Below, piece after piece: positions 3,893 to 31,109 of a DNA stretch of 32,000 nt. Under the pieces are notes generated by a model, which had not been told where the DNA came from, searched no databases, and worked only from the letters and a program-made list of their open reading frames with translations. Made by a program: the position numbers and the translations under genes. The DNA is from an uncultured Planctomycetia bacterium (GTDB taxonomy: Bacteria > Omnitrophota > Gorgyraeia > Duberdicusellales > 4484-171): assembly GCA_964536865.1 (NCBI GenBank), contig CAZHYN010000008.1, positions 1 to 32,000 on the forward strand, written 5' to 3'. The number at the start of each line of letters is the position of its first letter. Position 1 is the stretch's first letter.

Positions 3893-3923
3893 CAAAAAGT
3901 TCTTTTATAATAAAAGTTAACTT

Positions 3924-4191
3924 CTTTGTGGTGCCTTTTAAGGCTTAATAGGGAACCTTGTGGAAGTCGAGGACACTCCCGGTGCTGTGATGGGGGACGA
4001 AAGGTGCTATTTCTCCGACATTCGTCGGAGTGAAGTGTTACTATCCCGCCCTTTCTATTGAATTTCTATTGAAAGGGCGGGATGGGGAGACGCACCGAGC
4101 TCGCCAAAGGTAGCAAACTTACCAAAAGTAGGCAAGCCCGCGGAAGGCGAGCAAGTAGGATGATCCCAGAATCAGAAGACCTGTCACAGAG
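3924..4191 (+). promoter_or_regulatory. Cobalamin (B12) riboswitch aptamer, with a large internal insertion
   Basis: P1 pairs CUUUGUGG (3924-3931) with UCACAGAG (4184-4191). The conserved UUAAUAGGGAAC core lies near 3945-3956. A B12-box-like AUCAGAAGACCUGUC lies at 4171-4185. Extra hairpins are CTCCGAC-attc-GTCGGAG (4013-4030) and a 13-bp stem at 4043-4083. It sits directly upstream of a TonB-dependent receptor, the classic btuB context. Confidence 0.85.
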
Positions 4192-4259
4192 ATCAGTTTA
4201 GGTTTTAACGAGGATTAAAACCTAAAAATTCATTTGGGGCTAAAGAAAATCAGGGTGCA

Positions 4260-4321: not shown

Positions 4322-6142
4322 ATGAAGAAATGGATAATAGGGTGTATTCTAATTATCTTGGTTAATAAAGTTTCTTACGCTCAGGAGATAGAGTTAGGAC
4401 AAATAGTAGTGACTCCTCACCGCACAGCAACCAGTCTAGATGTTGAACCTTTCTCGTTAGAAGTTCTCAATATTAAAGAAGCTAGCAAAAAAGGTGAATT
4501 TACTCTCCAAGAGGTTCTTAAAGGGATTTCTGATTTAGGATATGCTACAACTTCTCAAATGGGGGAGGCGAGCATATTTATAAGGGGGACAGATGCTCGT
4601 CATACCCAAGTACTTTTAGAGGGAATAAAACTTTATGATCCTGTTTCTACTACTGGTTATTTTTACGCTTATAATTATATAGACTTATTTCCTTTTCAAA
4701 GAGTAGAAGTAGCTAAAGGTCCTTTTAGTTCCTTGTACGGTTCAGATTCTATAGGAGGAACGATTAATTTGATAACTAAAAAAGGAAAGGGTAAACCTAG
4801 TCTTTCTTATCTTCAGGAGTTAGGAAGCTATGCTACCTTTAAAGAAGCATTTATTTATCAGGGAGAGATAAATACGTTTTCTTATTTTCTTTCTCTCTCA
4901 AGGACAGATGTAAACTCTTTTTATGCTCAAAGATATAAGGAGGGGAATCACGAGAAAGACCCTTATCATAATTTTAACTCTTCCTTGAGACTAGATTACA
5001 ACTTTGACGACGATCTAGATATAACTCTTCTTAATCATTACATCTATTCAAAATACGAATATGATGCCACTAATTCAGATGATGACGATAATATTGCTCA
5101 TTTCTATCAGGGAGTGAGTGGAATCAAAATTCAAAGTGTTCCTTCTGAGAAGGTATCCCAGGAGTTTCAAGTGGGTTTTACTAGGACTTATCGCAAACAT
5201 TGGGAAAGTTCTTCTGTCAATTACTGGTATGATGGAAAGAGTTATCAGATTAAATATAAATTAGACTATCAACTTCTTAACTTTTATAAAATTATATGGG
5301 GAATGGACTACTTAAGAGAAAAAGGGGAAGGAAAGTATTCTGGTTCTTCTAATCCTGATAAATCCACAGCTAATAGTAAAGGTTATTACCTTGAGAATAT
5401 ACTTACTCCTTTTCCTACACTCTTTATTTCAACTTCTTACCGCTTAGAGGACCATTCTAACTTTGGTACTACAGGGGTATTTAATACTTCAGCAAGTTAT
5501 ATAATAGAGAATACTTCTACCAAGATAAAATCTTCTTTTGGGAAGGGTTTTAAAGCCCCTTCCTTATATCAACTCTACAGTTCTTATGGAGATCCTAATT
5601 TAACTCCCGAGAAATCAGAAAGTTATCAGATAGGGATAGAGCAGAGCCTGTTTAAAAGATTAAAGTTTTCATCAACTTATTTTCATATCCATCTTTCTAA
5701 TCTCATTGATTTTAATATGACAACTTGGAAGTACTACAATACCGGTAAAGCTAAAATTGAAGGGTGGGAGAATAAATTAGAATATAGTCTATCAAAGGAA
5801 ATCAGACTTAAATTATCCTATGCTAATATAGATGCTGAGAAGAAGGAAGATGGCTCAAGACTTTTAAGGAGACCAAAGAATAAAGCAATTTTAGCATTAG
5901 ATGTGTTAAAAGATAGGCTTAAAATTTATCCTGAGCTTACTTATGTAGGGAACCGGATTGATAGTGGAGGAGAAAAATTAAAAGCTTATCTTTTAGTTAA
6001 TCTTTCTTTAAACTTTGAACTCTATAAGGATTCGCATTTTTTTATTCGTCTGGAAAATCTTTTAGATAGAGACTATGAATTGGTTAATGCTTATCAGAGT
6101 AAAAAATTCTCTTGGTACATAGGGGCAAAATTCAGATTCTGA
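4322..6142 (+). CDS. btuB: TonB-dependent outer-membrane receptor, BtuB-like (vitamin B12 uptake inferred from the riboswitch)
   Basis: A signal peptide is followed by a TonB-box-like QIVVTPHR. Plug-domain motifs are IRGTDARHTQVLLEGI and LYGSDSIGGTINLITK. The barrel ends in a terminal aromatic (..GAKFRF). A strong SD is present. Confidence 0.85.
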   Translation: MKKWIIGCILIILVNKVSYAQEIELGQIVVTPHRTATSLDVEPFSLEVLNIKEASKKGEFTLQEVLKGISDLGYATTSQMGEASIFIRGTDARHTQVLLEGIKLYDPVSTTGYFYAYNYIDLFPFQRVEVAKGPFSSLYGSDSIGGTINLITKKGKGKPSLSYLQELGSYATFKEAFIYQGEINTFSYFLSLSRTDVNSFYAQRYKEGNHEKDPYHNFNSSLRLDYNFDDDLDITLLNHYIYSKYEYDATNSDDDDNIAHFYQGVSGIKIQSVPSEKVSQEFQVGFTRTYRKHWESSSVNYWYDGKSYQIKYKLDYQLLNFYKIIWGMDYLREKGEGKYSGSSNPDKSTANSKGYYLENILTPFPTLFISTSYRLEDHSNFGTTGVFNTSASYIIENTSTKIKSSFGKGFKAPSLYQLYSSYGDPNLTPEKSESYQIGIEQSLFKRLKFSSTYFHIHLSNLIDFNMTTWKYYNTGKAKIEGWENKLEYSLSKEIRLKLSYANIDAEKKEDGSRLLRRPKNKAILALDVLKDRLKIYPELTYVGNRIDSGGEKLKAYLLVNLSLNFELYKDSHFFIRLENLLDRDYELVNAYQSKKFSWYIGAKFRF

Positions 6143-17355: not shown

Positions 17356-17426
17356 GCGGGCGTAGTTCAATGGTAGAACACAGGCCTTCCAAGCCTGATA
17401 TGGCGGTTCGATTCCGCTCGCCCGCT
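17356..17426 (+). tRNA. tRNA-Gly (anticodon UCC)
   Basis: A manual cloverleaf folds as follows. The acceptor is GCGGGCG/CGCCCGC. The D-arm is GTTC-aatggta-GAAC. The anticodon arm is CAGGC-cTTCCaa-GCCTG. The T-arm is GGCGG-ttcgatt-CCGCT. The discriminator is T and no CCA is encoded. Confidence 0.95.
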
Positions 17427-25752: not shown

Positions 25753-26079
25753 ATGAAGGAAAGAAGGAAGGATTTACGAGTAAAGGTTTCTTTTCCTGTA
25801 GAGTGTATAGTTCTACCTGAAAGAAGGAGTTTCTTTTACACTGTAAGTAAGGATTTAAGTTTAGGAGGAGTAAGAATTTTGAGCGAAAATTTCCTTCCTA
25901 AGAATCAAGAGGTGAGGGTAAATATTAACCTAATAGAAGAGATGGTCTTGATTAAAGCTAGAGTAGTGTGGTGTAGCAAAGAGCGATGCTCGGAAAGGTA
26001 CTCCGCAGGTTTAAGGTTTTTAGAGATTAATGAAAAAGATAGAACTAATTTGAACAACTTTATAAGAAAGGTATCCTAA
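25753..26079 (+). CDS. PilZ domain protein (single domain)
   Basis: It carries RRKDLR (RxxxR) and DLSLGG (DxSxxG). Length is 108 aa. Confidence 0.85.
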   Translation: MKERRKDLRVKVSFPVECIVLPERRSFFYTVSKDLSLGGVRILSENFLPKNQEVRVNINLIEEMVLIKARVVWCSKERCSERYSAGLRFLEINEKDRTNLNNFIRKVS

Positions 26080-26081
26080 CA

Positions 26082-26228
26082 ATGGGGAAGAGCGAGGATA
26101 AAAGGAGAAATTGTTTAAACTGTAACAAGTCCTTGAGAAGAATAGATTGGTATTATAGAAACGGAGGATATTTCTGTAGTAAGAAGTGTTTTAAAACTTA
26201 TATTTCTAATAAAAAACAAATCTCTTAA
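26082..26228 (+). CDS. Unlisted 48-codon ORF: TRASH/zf-FCS-like zinc-ribbon protein
   Basis: The translation is MGKSEDKRRNCLNCNKSLRRIDWYYRNGGYFCSKKCFKTYISNKKQIS. It shows C-x2-C-x17-C-x3-C with the YFCSxxCF core. It starts 2 nt after the PilZ stop, and its TAA overlaps the next ATG (TAATG at 26226-26230). Confidence 0.5.
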   Translation: MGKSEDKRRNCLNCNKSLRRIDWYYRNGGYFCSKKCFKTYISNKKQIS

Positions 26229-26584
26229 TGCTAAAAGAAAAAAGGAGATATCCTCGCTTTACCTTCGCCCTCCCTATAAAGATATCTAATCAGGAGTTTG
26301 ATGTAGTTACTGAAACAAAAAATATAAGTGGCAACGGCGCCTACTGTTCTGTAGATAGAGAAATTCCTGTTATGACTAAGTTAAAAATCGTTCTTTTGAT
26401 TCCTTTAATTAAAAAAGGAAAAAGATTTTTGAAAAAGATAAATTGTAAAGGAGTAGTAGTAAGGTCCCAACCGATTCGTGACAATGGTAAAAATTTTTAT
26501 AATATAGGAATATTTTTCTCTGAGATAAATGAAGCTTATAGAAAAGTTTTACTTTCCTATATAAATTCTGCAGTTAAAAACTAA
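26228..26584 (+). CDS. PilZ domain protein (single domain)
   Basis: It carries RRYPR (RxxxR) and NISGNG (NxSxxG). Length is 118 aa. Confidence 0.85.
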   Translation: MLKEKRRYPRFTFALPIKISNQEFDVVTETKNISGNGAYCSVDREIPVMTKLKIVLLIPLIKKGKRFLKKINCKGVVVRSQPIRDNGKNFYNIGIFFSEINEAYRKVLLSYINSAVKN

Positions 26585-26599
26585 AGTACCATCCTTAAA

Positions 26600-27142
26600 A
26601 TGCTTAAACTTTCTTTACCTAAAAAAGTTAAGTTTATATGTGGGTTTATCTATTCGAACGAGGAAGATTTCTCTAAAATCAAGAAAATAATGGAGAAAAA
26701 GTACAAAGGTATAGATTATGAAAGTAAAGCAATAAAATTTGACTTTACTGATTACTATGCTAAGGAAATGGGAAGAAATTTAATAAGGAAGTTTTTATCT
26801 TTTAAAGTATTAATTAACCCTTCAGCTTTACTAAGGATTAAGCTATACACTCTTAAACTGGAGAGAAAATTTTCTTACCAGGGAAAGAGAAAGGTTAATA
26901 TAGATCCAGGATATTTGAATGATGCCAAGTTAGTTTTAGCCACTACTAAAAATTTTTCTCATCGTATATATTTAGGTAAGGGTATTTATGCTGAAGTTAC
27001 TCTTACTTATAGGAAAGGAGAATTTACTGATTTTTCCTGGACCTATCCTGATTATAGGATCCCTCAGTATAAGGATATTTTTTTAAAGATTAGAAATTTA
27101 TACCTTACTCAAATTAGATATGTTTCAAAGAAACAAAGATAA
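26600..27142 (+). CDS. DUF4416 family protein
   Basis: This 180-aa protein has the sequence NIDPGYLNDAKLVLATTKNFSHRIYL. It contains the GYL motif I recall as the hallmark of DUF4416. Confidence 0.55.
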   Translation: MLKLSLPKKVKFICGFIYSNEEDFSKIKKIMEKKYKGIDYESKAIKFDFTDYYAKEMGRNLIRKFLSFKVLINPSALLRIKLYTLKLERKFSYQGKRKVNIDPGYLNDAKLVLATTKNFSHRIYLGKGIYAEVTLTYRKGEFTDFSWTYPDYRIPQYKDIFLKIRNLYLTQIRYVSKKQR

Positions 27143-28052
27143 GATATATAAAATTAAAAAAAGATTAGATTATTTTTTGGCTCAATGGAGGAATTGCCAA
27201 TTATGCCCTCGTAAGTGTGGAGTAGATAGGTCAAAAGAAGTGGGTTTTTGCCAGATAAAGAATCTTTCTGTCTATACTGCCTTTATCCATAGGGGAGAGG
27301 AGCCTCCTTTAGTAGGAAAAAATGGAAGTGGTGCGATTTTTTTTTCAGGGTGTAACTTAAGATGCATTTACTGCCAAAATTTTAAGTTTTCTCATCTTTG
27401 CCAGGGTAAGATCATGAATGAACACCAATTAGCTAGTCTTATGCTTAAATTACAGGCTCAGGGAGCAGAAAATATTAATCTTGTAACTCCTACACATTTC
27501 CTACCACAGATTATAAAAGCTCTCCTTATAGCTTACCACCAAGGTTTAAATATCCCTATAGTTTATAATTCTTCAGGGTATGAGAGAACAGAAATTATAA
27601 AAGCTTTAGAAGGAATGGTGGATATATATTTGGTAGATATGAAGTATTTTACTTCTTCTGCTTCCTGGTTGGGTTCACATACTAAAGATTATCCTTTCTA
27701 TAATAGAAGGGCGGTAAAAGCAATGTATCAGCAGATAGATATTCCTTTCTGGGAAGATGGGCTTTTAAAAAGAGGTATAATTATAAGGCACTTACTTCTT
27801 CCTACTATGGTTAAGGAAGCTAAGCGTATTCTTTGGTGGATAAAGGAAAATACCCCTAAGGCTTATATAAGTATTATGTTTCAGTATCGTCCTTATTTTA
27901 AAGCATCATCCGTGCCAAGGTTAAATAGGCCCCCTAATTATGAAGAGTATTTAGAAGTAAAAAAGCTGGTGGAAGAGATAGAGCTAGAAGGATGGATCCA
28001 AGAGTTTAACCCTCCCGAAGAGTTAGCCGGTGTTTACTTTAACCCTTTTTAG
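27120..28052 (+). CDS. Radical SAM protein, PflX-like (COG1313-type homolog of PFL-activating enzymes)
   Basis: The radical SAM motif is CNLRCIYCQN (CxxxCxxC). It is preceded by the N-terminal cysteine cluster CQLCPRKCGVDRSKEVGFC. Length is 310 aa. Confidence 0.85.
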   Translation: MFQRNKDKIYKIKKRLDYFLAQWRNCQLCPRKCGVDRSKEVGFCQIKNLSVYTAFIHRGEEPPLVGKNGSGAIFFSGCNLRCIYCQNFKFSHLCQGKIMNEHQLASLMLKLQAQGAENINLVTPTHFLPQIIKALLIAYHQGLNIPIVYNSSGYERTEIIKALEGMVDIYLVDMKYFTSSASWLGSHTKDYPFYNRRAVKAMYQQIDIPFWEDGLLKRGIIIRHLLLPTMVKEAKRILWWIKENTPKAYISIMFQYRPYFKASSVPRLNRPPNYEEYLEVKKLVEEIELEGWIQEFNPPEELAGVYFNPF

Positions 28053-28077
28053 TTTTCACTTCTCAAATTTGAGTTTT

Positions 28078-28106
28078 TAGGTAAATTTTAGGTAAATTAG
28101 GTAAAT
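28078..28106. repeat. Three direct copies of TAGGTAAAT
   Basis: The copies lie at 28078-28086, 28089-28097 and 28098-28106, right after the radical SAM stop. They are preceded by the palindrome CTCAAATTTGAG (28062-28073). Confidence 0.7.
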
Positions 28107-28301
28107 ATAAGGAAGAATACATTACTAAGAGTAAATATCCCTTTTCTTATTCACAGGTTTTTATAGTCTTTATATAATTTTTTGATTTTCAATTAGTTAC
28201 AGAGAAAAAAGGTTATAATAAAAGTTTACATAAGATATATTATCGGAAGTAACAGAAGAATAAAAAGGGATTATTCGGTAGGATAAGATTTATGAATAAA
28301 G

Positions 28302-28467
28302 GCCGATAAGGGCCTTCTGTCTCGGCAGCTCAGCCACCCTAGTAGTCTCCAGGTGCCTAACTTGCTCACTATCTGGGGGCTAATAATTTAGTGAGCAACG
28401 GCTTCCTTAACTACCTTAGGTCTGTAGCTTTGCGTCCTCTGATTTCTCAGAGTTTGCCCTTATCGGC
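28302..28467 (-). ncRNA. c-di-GMP-I (GEMM-I) riboswitch-like RNA with no downstream ORF
   Basis: The minus strand reads GCCGAUAAGGGCAAAC-UCUGA-GAAA-UCAGA-GGACGCAAAGC-UACAGA-CCUAAG-GUAG...AGCUGCCGAGACAGAAGGCCCUUAUCGGC. It shares AGGGCAAAC, the GAAA-capped hairpin, GGACGCAAAGC, the CCUAA receptor half and 3' GCCGA with the Vc2 aptamer as remembered. A 12-bp closing helix pairs 28302-28313 with 28456-28467. Confidence 0.8.
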
Positions 28468-28474
28468 GTTATTA

Positions 28475-28504
28475 ATTATACAATATTTTTGTTCCTAATT
28501 TCAA
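28475..28504 (-). promoter_or_regulatory. Promoter of the riboswitch-like RNA: TTGAAA-N18-TATAAT
   Basis: On the minus strand, TTGAAA spans 28504-28499 and TATAAT spans 28480-28475. Seven nt (taataac) then precede the first G of the closing helix at 28467. Confidence 0.6.
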
Positions 28505-28530
28505 CCTTGCTTGAGAGAAATTTTACTATT

Positions 28531-28546
28531 TGTGAATTCATTCACA
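28531..28546. promoter_or_regulatory. Perfect CRP/FNR-type site TGTGA-N6-TCACA
   Basis: TTTGTGAATTCATTCACAAA has 9-bp inverted arms. The centre at 28538/28539 is about -71.5 relative to the predicted start at 28467. Confidence 0.45.
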
Positions 28547-28711
28547 AAGTTTTAACTAAGTTTATTAATTTAATTTTTATTTTTCTCTTTTTATTTTTTA
28601 GGGAGCTTATTTCTCCTGAGGTAAGTAGTGATATCCAGAGGTAGTACCCCCTAAAAAATTTAGAAAGATAGTTTTCATGTATTGGAATTCCTTCCTTTCA
28701 GGCCAAGGAGA

Positions 28712-29115
28712 CTAAAAGTATACTAAATGCAAGAATCTGGTGCAATTTCTATCTATTTTAGTCTTCAGAGAATCCACGAAAGGACTTCCTACTACTTCAT
28801 TATTTTGATTTTTCAAGATTATTCTATTCTTACAATGGATAACTCGGCCGCTAGGGGAGACGAAGGTCTCTTCCTCCCCTACTCCACTTGTAAGTATGTT
28901 GCCTACTTTTTAAAAGCCATGCGAGAAATATCAATTGCTTTATCCTTGGCTAAGGTAGAAATATTAAATAGATGAGATAGTACATTTTTCTCTTTTTCCA
29001 TTAATTGGATCAACTGAGAGGAGGAACTCTTTATAGTTATATCTTTAAACTCTGCCCAGGCAAATCTTGCTTCTGGCAACAATTTCCTAAGACGAGCACC
29101 TATTCTTATCTCCAT
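28712..29115 (-). pseudogene. Decayed B3/4-domain (COG3382-like) gene: N-terminal and C-terminal pieces in different frames, middle missing
   Basis: The ORF 28903..29115 (..LLPEARFAWAEFKDITIKSSSSQL...DKAIDISRMAFKK) resembles the N-terminus of solo B3/4 proteins. The next frame, from about 28906 to the stop at 28712-28714, reads VGNILTSGVGEEETFVSPSGRVIHCKNRIILKNQNNEVVGSPFVDSLKTKIDRNCTRFLHLVYF, which resembles the C-terminus. This is a recollection-based call. Confidence 0.4.
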
Positions 29116-29656
29116 CTTTTAATGTAGTTTTTAACTTTTTTAGAGTATTTTGATAAACTTCTAAATCAGTTTCAGAATAAAGCACAAGACGGATTCTTTT
29201 CACTTCTCTAAGTTCCTCAGCCACTTCTATTAAAGTTTGTAGAGAAATTTTAGCTGCTTCCTCTATAGGATAGCCAAAAGCACCGGTAGATATAGCAGGA
29301 AAAGCTATAGAGGTTACTTTATTCTTTTCAGCAAGAATTAGAGCATTTTTATAGCAGGAAGCCAAAAGTTTATCCTCAGGTCTATCTATTTTGTACCTTG
29401 GTCCTAAGCAATGGATTACATATTTATTAGGAAGGTTATAAGCTTTAGTAATTACAGCCTGACTTACCTTTATAGGGGCAAGTTTTTTGCATTCCTGATA
29501 AAGCAAGGGACCGCTAGCCTTATGTATCGCTCCTGCTACTCCTCCACCAGGAGCAAGATAAGCGTTAGCAGCATTTACTATAGCATCAAAACCAATTTGT
29601 TTAGTGATATCACCTTTTACACATTCCAGAGTTACATTTTTAATATTGATTATCAT
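29087..29656 (-). CDS. Macro domain protein (O-acetyl-ADP-ribose deacetylase/YmdB-like)
   Basis: The motifs GDITKQ..DAIVNAAN, GGGVAGAIH and IAFPAISTGAFGYP are present. Length is 189 aa. Confidence 0.88.
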   Translation of the reverse strand: MIINIKNVTLECVKGDITKQIGFDAIVNAANAYLAPGGGVAGAIHKASGPLLYQECKKLAPIKVSQAVITKAYNLPNKYVIHCLGPRYKIDRPEDKLLASCYKNALILAEKNKVTSIAFPAISTGAFGYPIEEAAKISLQTLIEVAEELREVKRIRLVLYSETDLEVYQNTLKKLKTTLKDGDKNRCSS

Positions 29657-29658
29657 CT

Positions 29659-30378
29659 TTAAATATCTTGGGAATATGTTAGATGTTTATTTATAAATTC
29701 TAAAATCTCTTTCTGTATTTCGTGATCGATGTTATAGAATTCCAAACCCATTCCTGGATACTCCAGAGGCTGGATTTCCCTATCTGCTACCCAGATTACT
29801 CTAGTGTCAATTTCTATAATGCCAGGTTTAGGAGATAAATTTATACGGGTTGAGAGTATCTCCCCTACAGAAAATATCTTCTTGGCTACGATAAATACTC
29901 CTATGGCGCTCAGATTCAAAACCTTTCCTTTATAGAAGAGATCTTTGGAAGAAAATTTTTGTTTATATTCAATAATGGCGTGGAAAGGAATCCTTCTAAA
30001 ACGTCTTCTAAGTTTTTTCTTTAGTATTCGGTAAATGCTTTCCTCCTCTTTTAGATACCTAATTGCCTCTTCTTCGTTACTATGGAAATTAAATACTTTA
30101 TTCAGTCCTACGAGAGTAAATATATTCTTAATGTGCGTAGGTACGTTACATATTTCCATCCTTCCTTTATGATTAAGAATATTTTTATATACTACAGCAA
30201 GAATGGAAATACCAATATAGTCTATTATATTTACCTTATTAAAGTTACATACAATATTTTTAGATTTATACTTAAGAACCCAACCAGCGGTTTCTACAAA
30301 ATTAGAAGCATTAATATCAATATTTCCTGCTAAATCAAGAATAGCCACACCATCTTTATCTCTCACATTAATCGTCAT
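29659..30378 (-). CDS. STAS (anti-sigma-factor antagonist-like) - PilZ fusion protein
   Basis: The N-terminal STAS fold reads VAILDLAGNID...NFNKVNIIDYIGISIL...ICNVPTHIKNIFTLVGL. The C-terminal PilZ carries RRRFRR (RxxxR) and NLSAIG (NxSxxG). I place the start at the ATG at 30378-30376, which forms an ATGA overlap with the uppP stop. The tracked start at 30411 lies inside uppP. Confidence 0.8.
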   Translation of the reverse strand: MTINVRDKDGVAILDLAGNIDINASNFVETAGWVLKYKSKNIVCNFNKVNIIDYIGISILAVVYKNILNHKGRMEICNVPTHIKNIFTLVGLNKVFNFHSNEEEAIRYLKEEESIYRILKKKLRRRFRRIPFHAIIEYKQKFSSKDLFYKGKVLNLSAIGVFIVAKKIFSVGEILSTRINLSPKPGIIEIDTRVIWVADREIQPLEYPGMGLEFYNIDHEIQKEILEFINKHLTYSQDI

Positions 30379-31109
30379 AAGAATACTGTTAGCACAGCTA
30401 ATACCAAACAATAATAGCCAAATTTATAAAGTTTACTCTCTTCTAAAAACTTTCTTAGAATACTTAGCGAACCTACTCCTACTAAGAAAGTTAGAATAAA
30501 GCTAAATATTAAAAGAGGACTACCCAATTTATATTGGAAAAGACTATTTGCTTCTACTAAGAAGGCTGCTAAGATTACAGGAATTGCTAGTAAGAAAGAA
30601 AAATTGAATGCCTCCCTTTTGCTAAGTCCTCTCCCCAAAGAAGCCACTATAGTTACTCCTGAGCGAGATATTCCTGGTAAGATTGCCAATCCTTGGAGAA
30701 TCCCTATCAAGATACACTCTTTAATAGAAAGTTCCTTAGCAAGTTTTTCGTCTCCTTTCTTAAAAAATAAAAGGATTAAGCTAGTAAAGAGAAAACCTAT
30801 TGCGATAAGTATTTTTTCTCCAAAGTAAACTTGAGCACTGATCATTATTAGATAGGCTAATAATAAAGTAACTAAAGAAGTTATAGTCAAATTTATGAGA
30901 ATTTTTCTATCTTGGATATAAGATATAATTTCTTTACGAAGATATACAATAATAGCTAATAGCGTAGCTAAGTGAAGATAAGTAAAAAAAGGTAGTGATT
31001 CGGATCTTACTTGAAGAATTCTCTCAGCAAGAAATAGGTGTCCACTACTACTTATTGGAAGAAACTCTGTGATCCCTTGAATTAGACTAAAAATAAAAAC
31101 TTCTTTCAC
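30375..31109 (-). CDS. uppP: Undecaprenyl-diphosphate phosphatase (BacA/UppP)
   Basis: The sequence GITEFLPISSSGHL is present, along with PGISRSG and multiple TM helices. Length is 244 aa. Confidence 0.93.
   Translation of the reverse strand: MKEVFIFSLIQGITEFLPISSSGHLFLAERILQVRSESLPFFTYLHLATLLAIIVYLRKEIISYIQDRKILINLTITSLVTLLLAYLIMISAQVYFGEKILIAIGFLFTSLILLFFKKGDEKLAKELSIKECILIGILQGLAILPGISRSGVTIVASLGRGLSKREAFNFSFLLAIPVILAAFLVEANSLFQYKLGSPLLIFSFILTFLVGVGSLSILRKFLEESKLYKFGYYCLVLAVLTVFL

Follow-up and report, generated by a model that had tools for sequence, protein, structure and literature searches.

The locus and its aptamer

The DNA analyzed here (the window) is a 32,000-nucleotide (nt) stretch from an uncultured Omnitrophota bacterium (positions 1 to 32,000 of contig CAZHYN010000008.1, assembly GCA_964536865.1), and the element under study is a predicted free-standing RNA gene of ~176 nt on its minus strand (28292..28467), consisting of a helix, a cyclic di-GMP (c-di-GMP) aptamer, a second helix strand, and a U-rich tail. 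The RNA is flanked upstream by a pseudogene for a B3_4-domain protein (28610..29115, minus strand) and reads toward a dif site (28223..28250) and then a convergent radical SAM gene (27120..28052, plus strand; Pfam PF04055), which is the next gene in its direction. An earlier note on this DNA, made from the letters alone, had described the segment 28302-28467 as a c-di-GMP-I (GEMM-I) riboswitch-like RNA with its own promoter and no gene to control. The minus-strand sequence that it quoted reads exactly so, and its reading stood as far as it could be checked; it had missed the RNA family, the U-rich tail, the dif site, and the upstream pseudogene.

Scanning with cmscan places an RF01051 (c-di-GMP-I) match at 28468..28321 of the minus strand, which scores 73.2 bits (E = 9.6e-13), far more than the gathering score of 35; the alignment spans model positions 1-87, its full length, and has an insertion of 63 nt in the P1b loop. 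The GEMM-I identity proposed earlier is thereby borne out, and the motifs listed for it are all present: a 6-bp CUCUGA/UCAGAG hairpin with a GAAA loop, GGACGCAAAGC, CCUAAG, and GCCGAG. The match is one of three at the gathering threshold in the whole 32-kb window, and a permissive Rfam scan of 27800-29300 (E ≤ 10) gave RF01051 as the sole credible match; candidates for a second RNA there (a group I intron or small RNA [sRNA]) amounted to noise only, such as CRISPR-DR6 (15.6 bits) and snoU82P (11.9 bits). A covariance model built for the RNA family described below (R1) is strand specific, scoring 157.5 bits on the minus strand at 28288-28467 and only 17.2 bits on the plus strand. In the minimum-energy fold, 28456-28467 pairs with 28302-28313 to form a 12-bp closing helix, whose outermost pair joins 28302 and 28467, and the fold of the 28292-28467 RNA has a z score of -3.1 relative to shuffles. 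By each criterion that can be applied to sequence and fold, the minus strand of 28302-28467 is a genuine c-di-GMP-I aptamer fold and a member of RF01051.

Conservation and covariation in uncultured Omnitrophota

The window region is identical to a metagenome contig in the European Nucleotide Archive (ENA), and its radical SAM protein is 89% identical to that of a Candidatus Omnitrophota metagenome-assembled genome (locus L003), in which the same RNA (RF01051, 66.8 bits) occupies the same place behind the same promoter. A protein-anchored scan of GTDB species genomes, using the radical SAM alignment as the query, found no close relative (best, 54% identity) and a single RNA-bearing locus (L008, also Omnitrophota; radical SAM 52% identical), where RF01051 lies beside the same gene. 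A metagenome scan with an aptamer-internal pattern returned 14 loci, 13 of which are true homologues, the other (L086) being a false positive without aptamer context. After removal of duplicates there are 13 distinct RNA variants, all from Omnitrophota, measuring 146-188 nt from helix to helix and all passing the RF01051 gathering score (homologues, 41.6-66.8 bits). Each starts with GCCG(A/G)UAAGGG and ends with CCCUUAUCGGC, with a U-rich tail directly after it. Together, these sequences define a conserved RNA family of uncultured Omnitrophota with at least 13 variants. In 758 kb of related sequence, R1 finds a single copy of the RNA at each locus and none elsewhere, with full-length copies scoring 136-178 bits in sense and ~17 bits in antisense; the weak R1 matches (L087 3027, L088 1380, and L089 5275), which include ordinary unrelated terminators, were set aside. 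Two scans of viral contigs gave no match and thus no hint that the element is phage-borne.

The 13 sequences were aligned at full length, with a structure made up of the Rfam helices, the closing helix, and the helices of a lineage-specific extension. Standard pairs fill 99.1% of the pair cells and 11 pairs have changed on both sides (27 cells), values that 0/500 shuffles reach; sliding the partners by one to three columns leaves only 22-53% paired. This covariation among relatives agrees with the fold read from the window, and the compensatory changes are located in the tetraloop hairpin, the receptor arm, and two helices of the extension. In the P1a hairpin (CUCUGA-GAAA-UCAGAG, 28437..28452 on the minus strand by the Rfam alignment), three of the five pairs counted have compensatory changes and the GAAA of the GNRA tetraloop is invariant. 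The receptor half CCUAA(G/A)G is conserved across the variants, and the 3′ half of the receptor reads UAUGG in L085, L094, and L097 and UA(G/A/C)GG in the others. The 63-nt P1b extension (28346..28408, minus strand), which appears as an insertion in the Rfam alignment, contains two short helices, a conserved GCC/GGC clamp, an asymmetric G/GNNA internal loop, and a variable terminal hairpin; within it, helices 6 and 7 of the family structure contribute five pairs with compensatory changes, and AAGCCGUU and AGGCA are invariant.

The equivalents of the ligand contacts G20, A47, and C92 (numbering of the Vc2 crystal structures) fall at 28458, 28431, and 28325 in the Rfam alignment and are invariant in all 13 variants, and the base next to C92 (C93) is A or U in the L008-type copies. 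The G and C that the earlier note had assigned to positions 20 and 92 are thus both present, and the G at position 20 predicts selectivity for c-di-GMP over 3′3′-cyclic GMP-AMP.

While the other helices covary, both strands of the P1 closing helix are near-invariant. The 5′ strand (GCCGAUAAGGGC, 28456..28467) pairs with the 3′ strand (GCCCUUAUCGGC, 28302..28313), in which CCCUUAUCGGC is the same in 13/13 variants, and across the family the 11 pairs of GCCGAUAAGGG/CCCUUAUCGGC are 100% paired and unchanged except for one A-U to G-U. The last four bases of the 5′ strand are the pocket nucleotides G19-G21 and C22. An alternative proximal P1, in which 5′ CCGAU pairs with AUCGG after C92, can form in the L008-type copies, L094, and L097 and is impossible in the window, L003, L085, and L092; it may be just the CCGA motif with a 2-nt insertion.

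Promoter and putative terminator

Upstream of the RNA lies a sigma-70-type promoter, TTGAAA-N18-TATAAT (28475..28504, minus strand), which has 11 of 12 consensus matches, is among the two best in a promoter scan of the region, and is separated by 7 nt (28474-28468) from G28467, the first G of the RNA, as described before. It is common to 13/13 variants, in the form TTGAAA (TTGAAT in L092), a spacer of 17-18 nt, and TATAnT, ending 6-7 nt before GCCG. Centered ~70 bp upstream of the predicted RNA start is a perfect palindrome of the CRP/FNR type, TGTGA-N6-TCACA (TGTGAATTCATTCACA, 28531..28546), which is the single match to this pattern in the 32-kb window (0.01 expected by chance). It is kept in L003 as TGTGAATAAATTCACA and is absent upstream of the L008-type copies; its presence suggests control by a CRP/FNR-family protein, for which it would be a possible activator site at the RNA promoter.

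Directly 3′ of the closing helix is the U-rich tail CUUUAUUCAU (28292..28301, minus strand), a putative intrinsic termination tract. A U-rich tail follows the helix in all variants (CUUUUUAUUU in L003, CUUUUUUAUU in the L008-type copies, AAUUUUUUUA in L092, and UCCUCUAUUU, the weakest, in L085), and similar tails are found on ordinary terminators of related genomes, as with GGGGUUUUUAUUUUC in L087. The arrangement is that of an 11- to 12-bp helix followed by the tract, in the window as in L008, with the stem enclosing ~140 nt. The closing helix is most likely the terminator stem as well, in which case the transcript would stop just past the aptamer; with its ends placed by the promoter and the tail, it would be about 170-180 nt long. 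In L094, a canonical bidirectional terminator (CCGCAGG-loop-CCTGCGG, flanked on each side by T runs; 865-884) sits between the RNA and dif, 20 nt beyond the closing helix, and a function in read-through is therefore unneeded there. The spacer past the U tail is unconserved between distant variants. Because the transcript is aptamer-only, its tail is terminator-like, L094 has this additional terminator, and the spacer is not maintained, we favor constitutive termination. A local hairpin, AAGGCC-CUUAUC-GGCCUU, was considered as a family terminator and rejected, being imperfect in L003 and absent in the L008-type copies.

Absence of a downstream gene

No minus-strand open reading frame (ORF) of at least 20 amino acids (aa) lies wholly within 28053-28301, and a transcript reading through would enter the convergent radical SAM gene, which ends at 28052; on both points the earlier note was right. 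A 32-aa ORF with a GTG start (28271-28369, minus strand) starts inside the aptamer and is unconserved in the closest relative, and a 19-codon ORF was dropped as a small-protein candidate when its ATG proved to be lost in L003; ORFs that overlap the aptamer differ between lineages. Where the flank is long enough, no locus has a co-directional ORF of at least 60 aa that starts after the RNA; L008-type loci do have a few further downstream, and these overlap opposite-strand genes. The orphan status of the RNA, which a conserved downstream ORF in relatives would have removed, thus persists in the homologous loci with enough flank. A convergent gene comes next in each of three contexts: it encodes the radical SAM protein in the window, L003, and L098; a 70-aa NikA-like ribbon-helix-helix protein in L008-type loci; and alanine racemase in L085, where its stop codon is 5 nt from the closing helix. 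The RNA therefore does not qualify as a cis-regulator of a downstream gene, which would lie in the 5′ untranslated region (UTR) of that gene and have an expression platform, and what is found instead, a c-di-GMP-I aptamer in a predicted noncoding transcript with no conserved downstream ORF, is the defining arrangement of a merRNA-type RNA.

The B3_4 gene directly upstream of the RNA promoter is intact in L003, where it encodes a 222-aa protein that matches Pfam B3_4. When this protein is used as a tblastn query, the window shows residues 1-70 in frame -3, cut off by a stop, and residues 124-222 in frame -2, interrupted by an internal stop, and ~42 residues are missing; the gene caller annotated just the 70-aa stub. 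That this gene has decayed while the RNA has remained intact in the same genome argues for selection on the RNA.

The dif site and the replication terminus

The dif site, ACTTCCGATAA-TATATC-TTATGTAAACT (28223..28250, minus strand), lies 51 nt downstream of the RNA and has the 11-6-11 layout of a XerC/D target. The 28-mer is identical at 25/28 positions to the experimentally confirmed Bacillus subtilis dif (reference sequence from PMC3025954), and the match is unique in the window, with 0 in 100 shuffles. The GC skew is positive over 1-28,500 (+0.18 to +0.32 at ~6,000-28,500) and then drops, with values of +0.03 and -0.08 for the final two sliding windows. All 27 ORFs of at least 150 aa to the left of dif are on the plus strand, and all three to the right are on the minus strand. 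Together, the dif match and its position exactly at the change in GC skew and the switch in ORF orientation identify the site as the chromosomal dif at the replication terminus, and the window thus spans the terminus of an Omnitrophota chromosome.

The dif 28-mer is near-invariant in 12 related loci (the window, L003, L005, L008, L012, L020, L087, L091, L093, L094, L096, and L097), with radical SAM identity of only ~50%; L005, L012, and L020 have dif without the riboswitch. Two arrangements occur, the window type, with the RNA 51-58 nt to the right of dif and pointing left, and the L008 type, with the RNA 221-265 nt to the left of dif and pointing right. In both, the RNA is the last transcription unit of its replichore, which explains the lack of a following gene. 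The L085 copy lies at a different convergent junction, and its 4.2-kb contig contains no dif, so the association of RNA and dif is recurrent and not obligatory. With only three independent arrangements, selection for this proximity and inherited synteny are indistinguishable.

The stretch from the RNA to the radical SAM gene is strikingly similar between the window and L003, and the conserved block 28100-28255 was considered as an expression platform or a controlled sRNA. It was rejected as either, for it is dif plus a flanking block, has the opposite orientation to the RNA in L008-type loci, and is present in the riboswitch-free L005, L012, and L020. The flanking part, a block of ~110 bp (28110-28222, plus strand) lying left of dif at a constant spacing, is also seen in L003, L005, L008, L087, L091, L093, L094, L096, and L097; it occurs in L005 without the RNA, is weaker in L020, and is not evident in L012. 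It contains two GTAAGAA-like direct repeats ~21 bp apart, ATTCACAG(G/C)TTTTTAT, and a conserved TTG ~30 bp further on, and in the window a plus-strand promoter scores within it (TTCACA-17-TATAAT, 28150-28178, 11/12), which would direct transcription across dif and antisense to the RNA gene. The block may serve as a promoter or as a site for a regulator or a terminus protein.

Other sequence features accompany this region. As DNA, the closing helix is an 11- to 12-bp inverted repeat, GCCGATAAGGG...CCCTTATCGGC, that has CCGATAA in common with the XerC-side dif arm ACTTCCGATAA (28240-28250) and GCCGATAA in common with the Frankia alni dif arm (sequence from PMC3025954). After the radical SAM stop codon there are a CTCAAATTTGAG palindrome followed by TTTTT (28062-28078) and three direct repeats of TAGGTAAAT (28078-28106, plus strand), of which L003 has one degenerate copy (TAGCCAAAT). 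In L008-type loci and L005, a convergent gene ~100 nt past dif encodes a ribbon-helix-helix protein of 68-71 aa that matches Pfam NikA-like at 27.6 bits, just above the cutoff (minus strand; L005 5731-5937, L008 6019-6231, L087 8797-9012, and L091 794-1006). This gene, which is absent from the window, may be a remnant of an element integrated at dif.

c-di-GMP signaling genes and other features of the window

Four genes with a connection to c-di-GMP lie within 7 kb of the RNA: two for single-domain PilZ proteins (25753-26584, plus strand, beginning at 25753 and 26228), one for a STAS-PilZ fusion (29659-30411, minus strand), and one for an HD-domain protein (HD_5, PF13487; 21421-22449, plus strand), all assigned by Pfam. 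The last is possibly a c-di-GMP phosphodiesterase of the HD-GYP type, and a STAS-PilZ homologue is also found near the L008 copy of the RNA. The presence of the PilZ and HD_5 genes so close by indicates that the genome uses c-di-GMP, and these signaling genes are clustered around the terminus. A 48-aa Cys-rich ORF (26082-26228) lies between the two PilZ genes. Elsewhere in the window are a cobalamin riboswitch (RF00174, 57.3 bits; 3912-4202, plus strand) upstream of a 606-aa ORF (4322-6142) and a tRNA gene (17356-17426, plus strand; 74 bits).

A candidate free-standing c-di-GMP-binding RNA

The explanation toward which we lean, with somewhat better than even confidence, is that the locus encodes a free-standing c-di-GMP-binding sRNA of ~170-180 nt that serves as a buffer or sponge for the ligand in the manner of the Bdellovibrio merRNA, and whose closing helix doubles as its terminator. 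Transcription would begin at the sigma-70-type promoter within a few nt of the 5′ strand of the closing helix; the RNA would adopt the GEMM-I fold, its GAAA-capped hairpin docking on the receptor-bearing arm with its lineage-specific extension; and the 3′ strand of the closing helix, with the U tract, would stop transcription just past the aptamer. Because nothing but dif and an opposite-strand gene lies beyond, we propose that the released RNA works as free RNA, binding c-di-GMP and acting as a buffer or sponge. Of the two roles that the earlier note had thought conceivable, ligand buffering and trans action, we infer the first to be the better candidate and return to the second below.

Binding of c-di-GMP probably alters the conformation or the lifetime of the RNA. 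The invariant CCC of the 3′ closing strand (plus a G in the window) is complementary to G19-G21 (plus C22), and since this CCC can pair with the pocket, the ligand must displace it and a change in conformation is expected: a closed rod would give way to the docked aptamer, with the CCC and a purine-rich linker freed. The extended-helix fold is the minimum-energy state in 8/8 variants tested; by nearest-neighbor energies, in which tertiary contacts are ignored, a pocket-competent fold lies 9-15 kcal/mol higher. By this calculation the cost is comparable to the binding energy implied by a Kd of roughly 1 nM for c-di-GMP, as quoted in PMC3627812. Output of such a switch might plausibly take the form of c-di-GMP sequestration, ligand-dependent stability, or an exposed trans-acting segment.

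Several considerations weigh against a self-terminating sponge. A terminator scan, which admits loops of 3-8 nt only, found nothing at the closing helix, since the stem encloses ~140 nt, and termination by a long-range helix of this kind is only putative. Both the window (CUUUAUUCAU) and L085 (UCCUCUAUUU) have a weak U tract, which makes read-through possible. The closing helix does not covary, so its pairing is inferred from perfect complementarity, and its invariance hints at an extra constraint outside the model. A sponge role also presupposes an abundant RNA, whereas expression here is predicted, and it leaves the persistent proximity to dif in two arrangements unaccounted for.

Alternative explanations

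We think it unlikely, although it is the foremost alternative, that the RNA is a true riboswitch in which c-di-GMP sets the choice between stopping at the helix and U tract and reading through over dif and antisense into the facing gene, which would couple c-di-GMP to antisense silencing of that gene or to events at dif. The RNA always faces a convergent gene, dif is 51-265 nt away in two of the three contexts, and 5 nt separate the helix from the end of the facing alanine racemase gene in L085; partial, tunable termination would be possible at the weak U tracts of the window and L085, and there are two mutually exclusive pairings for G19-G21. The B12 riboswitch RNA AspocR of Listeria is reportedly an antisense RNA under riboswitch control. 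One such riboswitch-controlled antisense RNA is cited in PMC3627812. However, both folds keep a GC-rich helix of at least 7-8 bp against the U tract, which leaves the ligand no obvious means of changing termination; the facing gene differs in each context, L094 has a strong terminator right after the RNA, and dif would be read in opposite orientations in the two arrangements.

The same displacement of the 3′ strand would also be expected of an RNA that acts in trans, in which c-di-GMP frees the linker and CCC (28314-28324) for binding to an mRNA or a protein, a prospect that we regard as quite improbable. The ligand must free the 3′ CCC together with the adjacent purine-rich linker of 8-17 nt, and the near-invariance of both closing strands, next to helices that covary, suggests sequence-specific recognition. 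Trans-acting RNAs derived from riboswitches, such as SreA/SreB and EutX/Rli55 of Listeria, are said to exist. Nonetheless, the linker varies more than any other part of the RNA, in length as well as in sequence, and no conserved protein-binding motif was recognized; binding of the CsrA type was considered and dropped, as only some variants have GGA motifs in the linker.

The near-invariance of the closing strands could alternatively be a property of the DNA, the inverted repeat being a recombinase or terminus-protein site tied to dif and the likeness to an aptamer being secondary. The 7-mer and GCCGATAA that the repeat shares with dif arms, and the position of the RNA on opposite sides of dif in two lineages, could be read in this way; we nevertheless consider it very improbable. 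Covariation of the RNA type in the interior and the strong, strand-specific covariance-model match speak against a DNA site, and the 4.2 kb of L085 contain the RNA without dif. The dif arm in L008-type loci reads CCTATAA while the helix, GCCGRTAA, is unchanged, so the shared CCGATAA is probably due to chance.

Finally, a decaying relic of a 5′-UTR riboswitch whose gene was lost at the terminus is barely credible, for although the adjacent B3_4 pseudogene attests to gene decay here and terminus regions tolerate junk DNA, 13 variants, from loci with radical SAM proteins only ~52% identical, keep the promoter, every helix, with compensatory changes, and the contact bases, none has a downstream gene, and unselected sequence at this very locus decays while the RNA is intact.

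Significance and comparison with known systems

The free-standing sponge that we favor bears on how riboswitch aptamers are understood, as these are defined by the genes that they control, and RNAs made up of an aptamer alone, with a promoter and a terminator of their own, are very rare. What is new here, as seen in the sequences compared, is an Omnitrophota family of 13 variants with a shared promoter, helix, and tail, no downstream gene in three contexts, and proximity to dif. Such a compact family, with its invariant and covarying positions mapped, offers a handle on buffering or storage of a second messenger by free RNA, and its two-state design, with the closing helix set against the ligand pocket, is open to direct testing. 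It would add an RNA receptor to c-di-GMP signaling in an uncultured, ultra-small, and possibly predatory phylum, and the dif sequence provides a terminus marker for Omnitrophota genomes. A bolder proposal, which we make tentatively and hold to be rather doubtful, is that Omnitrophota have a minimal c-di-GMP RNA gene, with helix and terminator in one and positioned as the last unit before dif on either replichore, that represents either a second and independent invention of a merRNA-type sponge, here by a lineage with host-dependent or predatory traits, or, more radically, a coupling of c-di-GMP to transcription at dif, dimer resolution, and cell division. To our knowledge, no riboswitch-like RNA has been linked to dif, and our literature search found no paper linking Omnitrophota to an RNA of this kind.

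The neighboring dif closely resembles that of B. subtilis in its sequence (25/28), 11-6-11 layout, single copy, and position at a shift in GC skew; it is a neighbor of the RNA and not a part of it. The RNA itself has the aptamer of RF01051 riboswitches such as Vc2 of Vibrio cholerae, with the same GAAA hairpin, CCUAAG-type receptor arm, and equivalents of G20, A47, and C92. Unlike a Vc2-type riboswitch, it lies outside any 5′ UTR, has neither a downstream gene nor a separate expression platform, and carries an 11- to 12-bp near-invariant closing helix, separated from the pocket by the purine-rich linker of 8-17 nt and followed directly by the U tract, as well as a conserved extension of ~45-100 nt on the receptor arm.

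A closer parallel is with the V. cholerae sRNAs that end in Vc2, which are likewise noncoding with their 3′ end right after a c-di-GMP-I aptamer and which are protected from degradation by c-di-GMP binding (Pursley and Waters, bioRxiv 10.1101/617340); stabilization by ligand is thus a plausible control of abundance for the present RNA also. The V. cholerae aptamer, however, also lies upstream of tfoY, and the 3′ ends of its sRNAs are reported not to result from termination (bioRxiv 10.1101/617340), whereas the Omnitrophota RNA has no downstream gene and has a U tract after the helix.

The only c-di-GMP precedent that we found for an aptamer in a gene-less RNA is the merRNA (massively expressed riboswitch RNA) of Bdellovibrio bacteriovorus, which the earlier note had invoked and which is a real case, a noncoding RNA of 445 nt with a c-di-GMP-I aptamer and no conserved ORF downstream (PMC3627812). 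A role in c-di-GMP storage or as a sponge was proposed for it, unvalidated at the time of publication, and it was reported to be unconserved outside Bdellovibrio (PMC3627812). Omnitrophota are described as ultra-small, with host-dependent or predatory traits (PMC10066038), and the similarity to the Bdellovibrio lifestyle is a parallel only. Compared with merRNA by size and description, the Omnitrophota RNA is aptamer-only and much shorter (~150-190 nt), is present in at least 13 variants, and usually lies by dif; it also differs in having a closing helix that is likely its terminator, a conserved extension of the receptor arm, and a location at the replication terminus.

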